Shown in pieces: positions 29,001-50,000 of a DNA stretch of 64,000 bases (within the stretch, counting starts at the first letter, position 1; each line of letters opens with the position of its first letter). The DNA comes from Eledone cirrhosa (Eukaryota). Location of the stretch: NCBI GenBank assembly GCA_964016885.1, contig OZ024760.1:10788001-10852000 (forward strand), written 5' to 3'. The notes under the pieces were generated by a model, which ran no database searches, was not told the DNA's origin, and saw nothing but the letters and a program-made list of their open reading frames with translations. The translations under genes and the position numbers were made by a program.

Positions 29001-32000
29001 TAGGGACCAGGTAAAAACTAGATGAGAGGCAGTTTGGGTTTGTGCCAGGAAAAGCACCACTGATGCCCTCTTCCTTGTGAGGCAGTTACAGGAACAGTAC
29101 CTAGCTAAAAGTAAGCCGCTCTACCTGGCATTTGTCGATCTGGAAAAAGCTTTTGACAGAGTGCCCCGTGCTGTAATCTGGTGGGCTCTTAGAAAACTAG
29201 GAGTAGATAAATGGCTTGTGAAAGCTGTACAAGCCATGTATAGGGGAGCAGTCAGCAAAGTTTGTATAGGGTGTCTCCAAAAAATGTATACACAAAGGCT
29301 GTGCACTCTAATAAATATTGCCTGTACAGGTAATCAATGAGTGTATACATTTTTGGGGGACATCCGGTACATGTGTATATATATATACATATAATATAAT
29401 TGTTTCTACTTTAGGCACAAGGCCAGCAATTACCCAGTGCATTACTGGTACTTTATTTTATCGACTCCCGTAAGGATGAAAGGCAAAGTCAACCTCGGCG
29501 GGATTTGAACTCAGATCGTAAAGGGACGTAACTATGCTGGAAAGCATGGCGTCCGACCCACATATATATATATCTACATATAATAATAGTGTATAAGGGA
29601 ACAAAGAATGAGTGTTGCATTATATACATATTTAATTACATGTGTTTCACTGTCGATCAGCTCGAGGAACAATTGATTAATGATCTATCCTGATTCTGGA
29701 ATTGGAAGCTCCTCAGATATATGTTAATATGTAGACTCAAGGAGACAACAAACAGAGGTACAAAAAGTCTTACGAGTTTCACACTTTATATTGGAAAGAG
29801 GAAAGAAAGTTTGTCGTGTCAGGCTTAACCTTTTAACATTCACATTACTCTATATATACTATTATATTTTCATGGTAAAGGCTTTACTTCACATAATTAC
29901 CTCACATAACATTCACATTACTCTATATATACTATTATATTTTCATGGTAAAGGCTTTACCTCACATAATTATCTCACATAATATAGAATCTATGAGATT
30001 TTGAAAGTATTTATTTTGAGAACAATACCTTAACATCAGTATGAGTGACCAGTTACAGCCAGTTTCAACAGAAAGAGGTAGAGAATTATGGCCGGTTTGA
30101 ACACTAAAGAGTTAAGCCCTTCTTCAGGAGTACAAAATAGAGACGGGATCACAATGGAGAAACAGAAAAATGGTCCATTGTATATAGGTTGAACCACATC
30201 TTTTTTGTGAATCACACTGTGAGTGTTCTTGCTAATTTAATCTGTTTTATGTTGTAGGTTTTACAGCTTACTTGTTGTCAGAAGATTGTGAAATCTTTAG
30301 TCCAGAACACCAAGTTATATGTCAAGATATGACACAGCCTCTCTGCCATTATTTTATAGCTAGTTCCCATAATACGTAAGTAAAACTTTTTTGCGAACGG
30401 TTTCTTTCGGGAGGGGGGGGGGGGGGGGTATTTACAAAATATGTTTTGAAAATTTACCCTATATACTTGTATATAAGCTGAGAAATAAGTGACAAAAAAA
30501 AAACAATTGGTGGTTAATGGGGAAAGGGTCGGCTTATATTCGAGGTTAATATTTTGCCGATTTTAACCAGCTTCAAAATTCTACGTAATTGAGGTGCTAA
30601 AATATTTTCACTTTAGAAGTGAATATTGTATTACACCTGTATTACTTTGGAAATGAATATTACACCAGTTGCCATTTGGAGGTAAATATTGCACCTGTTT
30701 TACTTTGAAGGTGAATATTACACCAGTTTCACTTTGGAGGTGAATATTACACCAGTTTCACTTTGGAGGTGAATATTACACCAGTTTCACTTTGGAGGTG
30801 AATATTACACCAGTTTCACTTTCAACCTAAAATTCATATTTTCAATTGTTTTTGAGAAGTTTTGAATGAATATGGCCTTAAAGTGGTCGGAAATTGGTAA
30901 AAAAAATCATTTCGTAATGGAGTTGTGAAACAAAAACTATACTCTAAACGGCACTTAAAACATTTTAAATATCAAAATATTAAAACTTCATAAATATATT
31001 TTATACTCATGAGAATTTCGAAACCATCTAAACATAATTTGGTGATTACTTGCATCAGCTTATAAATGGGGTTTGGATTTTTTCCTATTTCTCAGGCATA
31101 AAATAGAGGGCCATCATATATTAAGTTATTCAAGTATATACTGCTCTCTCTCAGAATTATTTACATTTTTATATTTGTACACTTTGTAGAAACCTTGCCA
31201 AACAAATGGTTGAGAGAACTCTTCAGTTGTGTCAAGGACACAACAACTTCCTTAGTGCTGGTGCCATCATAAAATATACCTAGTACACTCTGTAAAGTGG
31301 TTGGCATGAGGAAGGGCAAACAGCTGTAGAAATCTTGCCAAACAAAGGGGTGAGAGGATTCATCAGTTGTGTCAAGGACACATCAGCCTCCCTAATGCTG
31401 GTGCTATGATAAAATACACCCAGTACATTCTGTATAGTGGTTGGCATGAAGAGGAAGGACATCCAGCTGTAGAAATCTTGCCAAAAATAGAAAACAGTTC
31501 TCAGATATGTCCAATATTGGACCGTTAAGTCCCCATCCAACCCATGCCAACATGGAAAAACATGTAACATGATGATGATGATTTGTTCACAAATACATAT
31601 TTTATATTTGTACTTAATAACCTTAGATATTGTAAGCATCATTAGAGACAGAGTAACAAGCCCATTAACAACACACACACACGTGACAGGCTTTTATACT
31701 GTTACCTTCTACTAGAATGTCATAAAGGTGATTTCTGTTGTGTTTTAGGTATCTTATGGATGACCAGCTGAAAGGACCAGCGAGTATAGAAGGTTATATC
31801 AAGGTTTTGAAGAAAGGATGCAGATGTGTGGAATGTAAGATACTTTTCTCCTAATATTTATTGAATTTCATTTTGTTTAGACACTCCTTTCCCTTTGAGA
31901 ACACTTCCTCCTTTTAGTATCAAACTTCCTTTCAAGAATGTCTTGTTAATGTAGTTTCCTGTGGTACAGGATGTTAAACAAATTCCCTAATTATCTATTT

Positions 32001-47000: not shown

Positions 47001-50000
47001 CTTGGTAAGCAAATGAGGTCTGGGATCTTGTCGATTGAACACACTCTCTCTCTCTCTCTTTATATATATATATCTCTCTATCTCTATATCTCTCTCTCTA
47101 TCTCTCTCTCTCTCTCTATCTCTTTCTCTCTATCTCTCTCTCTATATATATATATATATATTTATATTAAAATAACAGATTAAAGTTTATTATTTATATG
47201 TTATTTTATATAATCTGTTATTTTAATAAATATTTGCTCTACGGTTCTTATATATTTGATATATATTTATCCTTATCGAGCCCTCTTTGGATTTTAGTCT
47301 TCAAATTTTATTATTATTACTATATATATATATATATATATATATACATATATATAAATAAATTATACAATTATCAAAGTTGTGTTCAAATCATTTAATA
47401 GCTGACAATCGTTTCTTCCAAACTCTCGTTTGGAGTCATCGGAGCATTATCAGTGTTTGTACATATAATTAACCTCCTATTCAACTGAACAATAATATAG
47501 ATACATATATATTGATGTTGTGAGCCACAGTTTCGTATTTACAGGGTGGAATGGATGTGACATATGTTTTACGATAATTGTACAAAAAGTAAAATTAAAA
47601 TTAAAAGCACAGAGTGGAATACATGCAACAGATAATACAAGAGAATAGTCCAATAATTAAAGAGGCATTGAGAAAGGAGCTTTGAGAAAGAAAGAGTTCA
47701 TTAGCAATACATATGCAGGTGTGTAGAAAGTGCACATGTGTTAGACATATATATGAGAAGGAAATAAGCAAAGTTATTATGCATATATAGATAAATAAAT
47801 ATTGTATTTTAAGCAAAAATGTAGTGTATTAAAATCTAAGGTGGACGTAGTTTGTTGATAGTGACTGAATTTGTGTGTGTTGAGGAGAATAAAGTTATTG
47901 CAGTCTCTTCCATTATATATGTTGAATTATATTTTAGTTAATGTTTATATTGAATGTTTAAGTTAGTTAAAGCAATGGATTGTAGAAAACCTACCTGTTG
48001 AACTAATGTAGCCCATGTATAGGATTACAATAAGACTAATTTACAATCCATTGCTTTAACTAACTTTAACTAACAGCTGTGCTGTTTTCTGACTTTGTAG
48101 GCATGTCCATGTGTGTTAGACACATGGAGATCAAAAAGGTGCTCAGGGCTGTTGTTGGCGAGATGGTTAATAACTTTCTTGTAATTTTTCAGAGAAGTAT
48201 TGGCAAATATGTTCCCTCAGTGAATCTCAAGCTGTGAAGTTAGCCCTACAGGATCCAGAAGAGTTTGTGAATCACAACAAACGTTTTCTATCCCGAATCT
48301 ACCCAAACGGTATGCGTGTCGACTCCAGCAATTTCAACCCACTTGATTTGTGGAACTGTGGCTGTCAAATAGGTAATACTTACTGATACACTTTCACATG
48401 CATACATAACTATACATATACACATACATAACTATACATACACCCTTACACATACATAACTATACATACATAACTATACATACACACTTACATATACATA
48501 TACATACATAACTATACATACACACACATAACTATACATATACACTTATACATACTAGATGTTAAACATATACATACATAACTATACATACACACACATA
48601 ACTATACATATACACTTATACATACTAGATGTTAAACATATACATACATAACTATACATACACACATACACATACATAACTCTACATACACACATACACA
48701 TACATAACTCTACATACACATACATAACTATACCTACACACATACATAACTATACATACACACACATAACTATACATATACACTTATACATACATAACTA
48801 AACATGCATACATATACATACACATACATAACTACAGGTGCACACACACATTACTAGATGTTAAATATATACATACATAACTATACACAAACTTACACAT
48901 AACTATATATACACACACACACACACATTGCTAGATGATAAACATATACAGAATAAGAGAGAGCTAACAAATATGTATACACACTTGTATATATTATTTA
49001 TACATACATACATATATATATATATATATGAAAAAATGGGGAGAAGAATACTGCAGGTTGCACATGGATAACATGTTATAAAATGAGTCCCTCATCAGTG
49101 ATTTACCAACGGTCATTGGTATTTCATTGCATTAAAAATCATATACCTCACGTTGGTGCAATAATAACTAAAATAAGTTATTAGGACAATTAAAACGCGT
49201 AAAGCGAGTGAGACAAGTAAACAACACAGAGGAAAGCTAACCGAAGATAGGAAAGACACAAGCTACATAGTTATTCTATCAGTATAAGCTGGGTGAATAT
49301 ATGAGCAAGTATATATATATATATATATATATATATATATCAATGCCAAAACAACTATAAGCATTATATATATATATATATATATATATATTCATTTTAT
49401 TAAGGCTAAATAATGAGTCTTGTTACTCTGGAGTTTTTTGGGGTGGAATGTTTTTCTTAAAAATCCTGGTTAACTTTCTGGAGAACTTTCTCGCATTCGT
49501 CAATCTAACAATCGCCACCAAAGAATGCGAGAAAGTTCTCCAGAAAGTTAACCAGGATTTTTAAGAAAAACATTCCACCAAAGTTAACAAAGGACTCATT
49601 AGATCTACATAGCAAAATTATAAGATTAGATTGTTATAGAATACCAACTACAAGGGAAGTCATTCTTTTCCTTTTTTCAAATATATCTAACTGTACCAAG
49701 GATTTCACACATTTTCCAATATATATATAAGCTACGACAAATTATCTACGAAATTAATAATTTATAAATTTTTCTTTATTATATAATAAAGAAAAATTTG
49801 ATATATGATATAATTAGTGCTTCAGTCTCCGATTTCAGTCCAGAGGATGCCAACCACTGATGGGTTAAAGTTTTGTCAACATCGGGATTGTTGGCTCTTT
49901 CTGGGTATTTTCTATACAGAGGCTTTTCTTGCCATTTCTTAGCCAGTTTCTGTAGCAGTTCTTTCTTTGCAGTTAATTTTACCTGCTTTGCCTTTTCTGT

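Follow-up and report, generated by a model that had tools for sequence, protein, structure and literature searches.

A cephalopod PLCL/PRIP ortholog with a complete phospholipase C site

Introduction

The genome of Eledone cirrhosa encodes a PLCL ortholog whose phosphoinositide phospholipase C site is complete, and by its sequence the protein is on balance likely to be a Ca2+-dependent enzyme that cleaves PIP2. The gene lies in a window of 64,000 nucleotides (contig OZ024760.1, positions 10,788,001 to 10,852,000), the whole stretch of DNA analyzed here. PRIP/PLCL proteins are textbook pseudoenzymes. The hallmark of this state, loss of the residue equivalent to H356 of PLC-delta1, is absent from the window protein, where a histidine is found in the genome and in a spliced contig. 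In the literature searched, coverage of which was partial, no report of a catalytically intact invertebrate PLCL was found, and a prior mention is plausible.

Gene structure

The PLC-like gene is on the + strand and comprises 19 exons over 1870-61928, with both of its ends beyond the window. The joined exons give 782 codons with 0 stops and a PH-EF-X-Y-C2 layout, and every exon (19/19) is matched in tblastn by P0002, a protein of a cuttlefish cluster. The PH domain is split between 1870..2019 (open frame, 92% in tblastn to P0002 342-392, with the gene start upstream of the window) and 4793..5011 (Pfam PH_12, E 7.8e-09). A 40-nt exon at 6011..6050 (tblastn 80%, E 0.002, frame kept) encodes the PH-EF linker. 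It is followed by the only AT-AC intron of the gene, the other 17 introns being GT-AG. This 10.8-kb intron (6051..16867) has the 5' signal ATATCCTTT, a branch-site-like TTCCTTAAC at 16850 and a 3' AC; its signals occur once each on the + strand, and it was typed as U12 on the U12 consensus. EF-hands 1-2 are encoded at 16868..16997 (tblastn 86%) and the remaining EF-hand region at 26263..26375, 27685..27751 and 28466..28559, all three supported by open frames and tblastn.

Downstream of the X and Y boxes, the exon at 50074..50252 (tblastn) holds the Y box end and a PLCL-type SYFSANTKD segment (50187). The exon could also begin in frame at an acceptor at 50098, but this choice would delete the conserved SVNYQT segment and was rejected. 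The C2 domain is encoded at 52357..52495 (tblastn 92%; Pfam C2, E 3.7e-04, a fragment slightly below the curated cut-off), 53329..53475 (tblastn 90%) and 55888..55985, the last identified by a PLCL-type motif at 55953. Pfam searches of the window exons and P0002 gave the same domain order followed by a C-terminal extension, of which the window has the first exon (61830..61928, tblastn 79% to P0002 1095-1127); the gene runs past the window. A sequence-only reading had placed the gene at 30258-48372. The motif exons within that span are real, but the gene extends far past both ends, and the SYFSANTKD segment and the 55953 motif lie outside it.

Membership in the PLCL/PRIP family

The window gene is a cephalopod PLCL/PRIP ortholog. 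In an IQ-TREE analysis (LG+C20+F+G4, 54 rows x 466 columns), from which the 11 site columns had been removed and P0215 excluded for gaps, the window protein fell inside PLCL/PRIP (100/100). The branch separating the 35 PLCL rows, among them vertebrate PLCL1/2, lamprey and C. elegans PLL-1, from the remaining rows was recovered in every one of 200 bootstrap trees. PLC-delta and PLC-eta were recovered as separate groups (100/99 and 100/100), and the protein grouped with neither, as the orthology proposed by the sequence-only reading had predicted. A FastTree analysis of 170 rows gave a PLCL clade of 50 with support of 0.979. The nearest relative is the cuttlefish cluster (87% identity), and identity is 57% to a snake PLCL2 vs 41-45% to delta and eta proteins. 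Three PLCL motif patterns around C2, all found in the window, occur in 30-41 of 49 PLCL rows and in 0/120 outgroup proteins. Among the flanking motifs that had been called PLCL-type, two patterns were absent from all 120 non-PLCL proteins, whereas VTDEDEG was present in 23/120 and is only weakly PLCL-specific.

The catalytic site

All 11 active-site residues of PLC-delta1 are present in the window protein: H311, N312, E341, D343, H356, E390, K438, K440, S522, R549 and Y551. The X box starts in the exon 30258..30375, where SSHNT (30362) provides H311 (30368-30370) and N312 (30371-30373) and an intron splits the T codon. E341 (31831-31833) is at the end of the exon 31749..31834 and D343 (32013-32015) at the start of 32011..32131, so that VE and LD meet across the junction. 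The latter exon also contains PLVYHGRT at 32040, in which CAT at 32052-32054 encodes the H356 equivalent. In the exon at the X box end (33777..33945; tblastn, PLC-delta1 alignment), CLENH at 33793 carries E390 (33799-33801), and the final codon is K438 (33943-33945). K440 (45032-45034) is in the next exon, 45029..45124 (tblastn), which completes LVK-AKK across the junction and encodes the acidic X-Y linker (VTDEDEG). The basic end of the linker and the Y box start are at 46791..46893 (open frame, tblastn). The Y box exon 48193..48372 (PLC-delta1 alignment) contains CSLSE at 48210 (S522, 48213-48215) and SRIYP at 48291 (R549, 48294-48296; Y551, 48300-48302). CSLSE also occurs at 31142, within an intron, and this copy was set aside as a chance occurrence. 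The catalytic motifs proposed earlier for this gene, including the CAT at 32052, are thus carried by correctly spliced + strand exons. Their assignment to PLC-delta1 residues was borne out by the residue count of rat PLC-delta1 (chain 1djg_A), in which an assumed offset of 132 gave the expected letter at 11/11 positions. This numbering was checked on the window's H356 exon and on the cuttlefish ortholog P0155, which has the same residues at all 11 positions.

A transcript-like contig of 3195 nt (run X4) joins the three X-box exons 30258..30375, 31749..31834 and 32011..32131 exactly. Run X4 and the other three runs belong to one study, and no run listed is recorded as RNA. The check for RNA editing at the His codon showed no change in this one spliced contig.

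Conservation was also assessed over the wider catalytic barrel, at 65 columns conserved in 120 non-PLCL PLCs. The window protein keeps 61 of them and has four conservative changes (S324A, T361S, S388C and A576S), more departures than 98/120 non-PLCL PLCs. S388C is common to the window protein and 82/83 PLCL2 proteins, and C occupies that column in 1/120 outgroup proteins. At the level of fold, a model of P0162, a cuttlefish-cluster member (pLDDT 88.9), best matched PLC-delta1 (TM 0.93 on target, rmsd 2.4 A); this is the overall fold of a relative of the window protein. A single-sequence fold of P0155 was discarded (pLDDT 36.9).

Site state across animals

An intact site is the usual state in molluscs and echinoderms and no speciality of E. 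cirrhosa. H356 is kept in 25/25 other mollusc models covering the position (28 in all, most of these matches coming from a Y-box exon query without H356), in 7/7 covering cuttlefish-cluster proteins (9 in all), in 10/10 ambulacrarians (echinoderm/hemichordate) and in one hydrozoan. All 11 columns are covered in 22/28 mollusc models, 20 of them identical and 2 with E341D. Clytia and Lingula have 11/11 site residues and Ciona 10/11. The cnidarian H356 state is that of one sequence, since the Stylophora model P0052 is broken there and was excluded from the H356 and state counts.

Other lineages have lost residues of the site, and not the same ones. Jawed-vertebrate PLCL2 has Thr at H356 in 83/83 proteins and lamprey has Asn. 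Arthropods show E341K (9/9 covering), amphioxus N312D/D343V/R549E, C. elegans H311R/N312K/H356N/E390S and leech E341K/H356R/E390V. The PLCL1 retrieved were 120 ray-finned-fish proteins, none of them mammalian. These proteins are decayed at five to six positions other than H356, with R at N312 in 119, C at E390 in 113, Y at H311 in 112, G at D343 in 111 and R at Y551 in 118. Their H356 loop carries an insertion and is not reliably alignable: a His at H356 in 80/120 by BLAST mapping was rejected because the insertion is His/Gln-rich (gar) and MAFFT gives Arg. The statement that vertebrate PLCL1/2 lack H356 stands for PLCL2 and lamprey; in fish PLCL1 the decay that can be placed reliably is elsewhere.

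Departures from the 65-column consensus have a median of 1 in the other molluscs, equal to that of non-PLCL PLCs; Tubulanus has 0, and several molluscs and Clytia have 1. The median for intact PLCL is 2 vs 1 in the outgroup, from which the consensus was built, and the rows are non-independent. In lineages that lost one of six core residues, decay elsewhere is greater, with a median of 4/55 columns (n = 27) vs 2 in intact PLCL (n = 22). PLCL has no family-wide substitution at any of the 65 columns. A simple calculation of how probably all 11 residues would survive by chance was set aside because rates differ among sites.

In PLCL an intact site is most likely the original condition, because a hydrozoan, ambulacrarians, a tunicate, a brachiopod and molluscs all have it. 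The loss of different residues in amphioxus, arthropods, C. elegans, leech and fish PLCL1 likewise points to an intact ancestor and repeated decay. Vertebrates and several other lineages probably each lost the activity on their own. Such repeated loss suggests that catalysis is weakly needed across the PLCL family. The sequence-only reading had seen in this gene the state before a pseudoenzyme conversion. The catalytic-position alignment across invertebrates favors an ancestral site, but one that is not peculiar to the window, and several invertebrate lineages lost other residues, which argues against a single vertebrate conversion.

Comparison with known proteins

The window protein and vertebrate PLCL2 (PRIP-2) are orthologs, 57% identical over 778 residues in the case of snake PLCL2, with the same PH-EF-X-Y-C2-extension layout and PLCL motifs. 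Nearly all PLCL2 proteins agree with the window protein at 9/11 site residues, with Y or F at Y551. At H356 the window protein has His where PLCL2 has Thr, and it has Leu at L320 and F360, where PLCL2 has Phe and Met, respectively. Vertebrate PLCL1 (PRIP-1, p130) and lamprey PLCL belong to the same clade, and KKTVSF is present in orthologs; their difference lies in the decayed fish PLCL1 site and the lamprey Asn. Rat PLC-delta1 (PDB 1djg) has all 11 site residues and, of the solved structures, comes closest in both sequence and fold. It falls in another clade, the window protein being about 42% identical to delta-type proteins; it is without PLCL motifs and, as annotated, has no long helical extension at the C terminus. 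C. elegans PLL-1, described as the PLC-like homologue (PMC2266627), is the one invertebrate member of the PLCL clade that the literature covered discusses, and it is heavily decayed, with R, K, N and S at H311, N312, H356 and E390. PLL-1 has shaped the idea of invertebrate PLCL as inactive. The mollusc entries Aplysia 'phospholipase C' (ABD62079.1) and Sepia pharaonis CAE1156514.1 are direct orthologs with His at H356. The window protein shows no essential difference from them and is one more member of the intact group. Most mollusc PLCL entries carry the source label 'inactive phospholipase C-like protein'.

Proposed mechanism and alternatives

Residue roles, PH targeting and linker auto-inhibition are PLC-delta1 chemistry, from which a mechanism is proposed by analogy. 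The PH domain would carry the protein to PIP2 membranes, where N312, E341, D343 and E390 would bind Ca2+ and K438, K440, S522, R549 and Y551 would grip the inositol ring. H311 and H356 would then catalyze cleavage of PIP2 to IP3 and DAG, and auto-inhibition would come from the short, acidic X-Y linker, as in other PLCs. An N-terminal KKTVSF site of RVxF type, presumably a docking site for protein phosphatase 1 (PP1), would lie upstream of the window, judging from orthologs. The motif type is present in 5/5 long cuttlefish-cluster proteins, 11/15 other molluscs and 70/78 PLCL2, and also in Clytia and C. elegans. Cephalopod PLCL thus probably also docks PP1. Where the scaffold role was enough, catalysis may have been dropped through different substitutions in each lineage.

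Could the site instead be silent, or nearly so, and persist because a PP1 scaffold uses it as a pocket for Ca2+/inositol phosphate or PIP2? Conserved residues alone do not prove catalysis. PLCL would then have lost effective catalysis at the family base through changes outside the 11 residues, with membrane docking, a permanently closed linker and a clamp by the C-terminal helical domain as candidates. p130 inactivity is reportedly not fully accounted for by catalytic residues (attributed to Kanematsu, 2000). The repeated, independent loss of catalytic residues fits this account, as does the S388C shared with PLCL2. Vertebrate PLCL2 retains most pocket residues yet is inactive, according to two reports (PMC12998161, PMC5390332). 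In PLCL2, 9 of the other 10 site residues are near-invariant and the Thr itself is invariant, so its pocket appears to be conserved for a non-catalytic reason. Against a silent pocket, no substitution at the 65 columns is universal in PLCL, with departures as few as those in Tubulanus, Clytia and several molluscs, and H356 is kept in 42/42 covering mollusc, cuttlefish-cluster and ambulacrarian proteins. The role of H356 is catalytic and not one of binding. We consider a silent pocket a serious but rather doubtful explanation.

Two further readings are much less probable. Coleoids show extensive RNA recoding, the CAT codon contains an editable A and leech has Arg at the H356 column; cephalopods might thus have regained the His, or might toggle the enzyme by A-to-I editing of CAT (His to Arg). 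His is, however, the common state in molluscs, ambulacrarians, brachiopod, tunicate and hydrozoan, so a regain is unneeded, and it is found in the X4 contig and every covering cuttlefish-cluster protein. This reading is very improbable, although minor editing could still occur, since contigs lose rare variants. That a PLC-delta or PLC-eta was taken for PLCL is less credible still. The closest solved structure is PLC-delta1 and the site matches that of an active PLC, but delta1 leads the PDB list by default because the matches include no PLCL chain. The higher identity to snake PLCL2, the three motif patterns lacking in the outgroup and the separation of delta and eta all oppose it, and the IQ-TREE tree refutes it.

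Implications

The preferred reading, an active enzyme, may extend to the family. On evidence that we find evenly balanced, PLCL would be an overlooked active phospholipase C and PP1 scaffold in molluscs, echinoderms, hemichordates, brachiopods and cnidarians, mislabelled 'inactive'. Conversion to a pseudoenzyme would have happened on at least five independent occasions, and jawed-vertebrate PLCL2 would be essentially one residue from the ancestral site. Hundreds of 'inactive' annotations would then be wrong. The family would offer a natural pseudoenzyme series, from an intact ancestor through the near single-residue loss of PLCL2 to fully decayed forms, reached by different routes. If the site is silent, the same series poses another question: what else disables a complete PLC site? 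If the mollusc form does cleave PIP2, it would be an uncounted source of IP3 and DAG tied to a PP1 scaffold, and would bear on models of invertebrate neurobiology and egg activation in Aplysia, cephalopods and sea urchin.

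The PLCL gene and its place in the phospholipase C family

The DNA is of animal type, rich in AT and full of repeats. On its plus strand, 19 exons (1870-61928) encode 782 codons with no stops, and all of the motifs named in the sequence-only reading were found on this strand where that reading had placed them. In tblastn, the 1313-residue protein P0002, whose 90% cluster (the cuttlefish cluster) includes Sepia pharaonis PLCL2, matched all 19 exons; 678 of the 782 window residues are identical to it (87%). The protein runs from a PH domain through EF hands, X, Y and C2 to an extension, with the gene start and the C-terminal ~190 residues lying beyond the window. 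In the cuttlefish-cluster ortholog P0162 the extension (576-758) is predicted with high confidence to form a long helical bundle; it has no Pfam match, and only 61830-61928 of the window belongs to it.

Seventeen introns have GT-AG ends and one has AT-AC ends. The latter is a U12-type intron of 10.8 kb (6051-16867) that separates the PH exons from the EF-hand exons. In the databases, five mollusc models (P0155, P0009, P0013, P0035 and P0042) begin at the first Met past it, and models from Solemya (P0060) and a coral (P0052) translate straight across its 5' site to give RD.YPF, which suggests that the intron is old, shared from coral to mollusc, and that it disrupts gene prediction. The Y-box exon has in-frame AG acceptors at 50074 and 50098, spaced 24 bases apart; splicing to the second would cost the catalytic barrel eight conserved residues. 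The last intron that the window covers holds a non-LTR retrotransposon in the same sense as the gene (58022-60724, plus strand), with an open 901-codon frame for endonuclease, reverse transcriptase and a PHD-like finger. Related fragments are found in other introns (~11000-12540 on the minus strand, 28800-29260 and 36950-37520), and a 200-N assembly gap (1104-1303) precedes the first exon within the window.

The gene had been proposed to be a PLCL ortholog, and phylogeny has borne this out. With FastTree (170 rows), the window protein was placed within a clade of 50 (support 0.979). With IQ-TREE (54 of these rows, 466 columns, the 11 site columns excluded), it was placed in the PLCL group (35 rows, 100/100), apart from delta (6 rows, 100/99) and eta (4 rows, 100/100), several outgroup rows being labelled by tree position. 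PLCL branching approximates animal phylogeny (cnidarians, ecdysozoans, ambulacrarians, vertebrates and lophotrochozoans, with amphioxus poorly placed), as would be expected of a single orthology group. The description of the flanking motifs as PLCL-type holds for three patterns, which are present in the window and in 0/120 outgroup proteins, but only weakly for the VTDEDEG pattern, which occurs in 23/120.

Catalytic site and transcript

The roles of the site residues are those known for PLC-delta1. The exon with the H356 codon (CAT, 32052-32054) aligns without gaps to 211-248 of the rat PLC-delta1 chain 1djg_A. A full alignment of the cuttlefish ortholog to this chain, using an offset of 132 that we take to convert its count to PLC-delta1 numbering, gives the expected letter at all 11 positions (H311, N312, E341, D343, H356, E390, K438, K440, S522, R549 and Y551). 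The window protein has the same 11 residues; the site is complete, as first claimed.

Four sequencing runs from a single study, none recorded as RNA, match the stretch and were compared over 30200-32170. In run X4, a single 3195-nt contig spans 30257-30375, 31749-31834 and 32011-32131 in consecutive contig coordinates and thus represents a spliced transcript agreeing with the gene model. Its one difference from the window, a silent T to C at 32015, is an allele, since an unspliced contig of run X2 carries the same change. The His codon is unchanged, which speaks against RNA editing there as far as one contig, of a kind that masks rare variants, can tell.

Retention and loss of the site across animals

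An intact PLCL site is common among invertebrates. H356 is present in 25/25 other mollusc models covering the column (28 examined), in all seven covering proteins of the cuttlefish cluster (nine examined) and in 10/10 echinoderms and hemichordates. All 11 columns are covered in 22 of the 28 mollusc models, of which 20 are exact and two have E341D. Lingula, Owenia, Tubulanus and Clytia carry 11/11 and Ciona 10/11. A long-branch second PLCL paralog of scallops (P0181, P0334-P0336) also has 11/11, without KKTVSF.

Other lineages have lost residues. Jawed-vertebrate PLCL2 has Thr at H356 in 83/83 proteins and keeps the other ten positions, save Y551 (Phe in 36, Cys in one) and a single E341D; fish PLCL1 (n = 120) has lost five to six positions. 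Lamprey has Asn at H356, arthropods have E341K (9/9 covering, 10 examined) and amphioxus has N312D, D343V, E390D and R549E (6/6). Substitutions are also found in C. elegans (H311R, N312K, H356N, E390S), Soboliphyme (H311F, E341Q, D343E) and a leech (E341K, H356R, E390V). Parsimony on the 54-row tree counts six changes between intact and lost, one in the delta outgroup, a count that does not distinguish loss from regain. The six core residues are present in 112/120 outgroup proteins, however, and the differing substitutions among lineages point to separate decays from an intact ancestor.

His (CAY) to Thr (ACY) requires two base changes. The lamprey (P0174) Asn (AAY) is one step from both codons, which suggests that His became Asn in early vertebrates and that Asn later became Thr in PLCL2 (P0071-P0154); lamprey is only weakly placed between PLCL1 and PLCL2 (IQ-TREE support 92/57). 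H311Y and E341A, common to Paralvinella (P0046, annelid) and Lineus (P0063, nemertean), may be convergence or a data problem; Owenia, Ridgeia and Tubulanus retain both positions, Ridgeia with E341D.

According to earlier work, mammalian PLC-like proteins and PLL-1 carry a mutation at a critical histidine (PMC2266627), and PRIP/PLCL is without activity (PMC12998161, PMC5390332, PMC3634480). A sea cucumber PLCL is given simply as 'inactive' (PMC13403383), whereas the sea cucumber ortholog found here, from Apostichopus, retains H356. No publication on an intact invertebrate PLCL was found in a literature search whose reach excluded most subscription journals. Earlier notice of an intact mollusc PLCL is plausible: Sossin and Abrams reportedly surveyed gastropod PLC families in 2009, and a database cDNA from Aplysia, labelled only 'phospholipase C' (ABD62079.1), belongs to the PLCL group and has His at H356.

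Is the window protein an active phospholipase C?

We lean, with modest conviction, towards an active enzyme. Counted for activity are the complete site and a catalytic His retained across molluscs and ambulacrarians. At 65 columns conserved in non-PLCL PLCs, other molluscs also depart at a median of one, the same as those PLCs, and no departure common to every PLCL was found there. Decayed lineages depart more, with a median of four against two in intact ones at the 55 non-site columns, although rows are not independent. Counted against activity are the window protein's own four departures (S324A, T361S, S388C and A576S), which match the decayed group's median and include an S388C common to 82/83 PLCL2. 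PLCL2 itself is a precedent for a pocket conserved without catalysis, and repeated loss implies a weak need for catalysis. The structural model of P0162 is confident (pLDDT 88.9) and overlays PLC-delta1 with a TM of 0.93 on target and 2.4 Å, which supports the fold, not activity.

Beyond the residue inventory, the mechanism we infer is as follows. The PH domain would recruit the protein to PIP2, which the two histidines would cleave in a Ca2+-dependent manner to IP3 and DAG. The 42-residue X-Y linker (nine acidic, eight basic) would restrain the enzyme, and an N-terminal KKTVSF motif would dock PP1. This motif, presumably a PP1 site, occurs in orthologs from Clytia to vertebrates at a position outside the window. 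Vertebrate PRIP is described as binding PP1, PP2A, IP3 and PIP2 in two papers (PMC5390332, PMC3634480).

The gene had been suggested to represent the state before pseudo-enzyme conversion. The intact PLCL site is probably ancestral, but rather than undergoing a single conversion it probably decayed several times separately, with different residues lost in different lineages. The intact site is a family-wide pattern across much of the invertebrate world and is not peculiar to the genome of Eledone cirrhosa.
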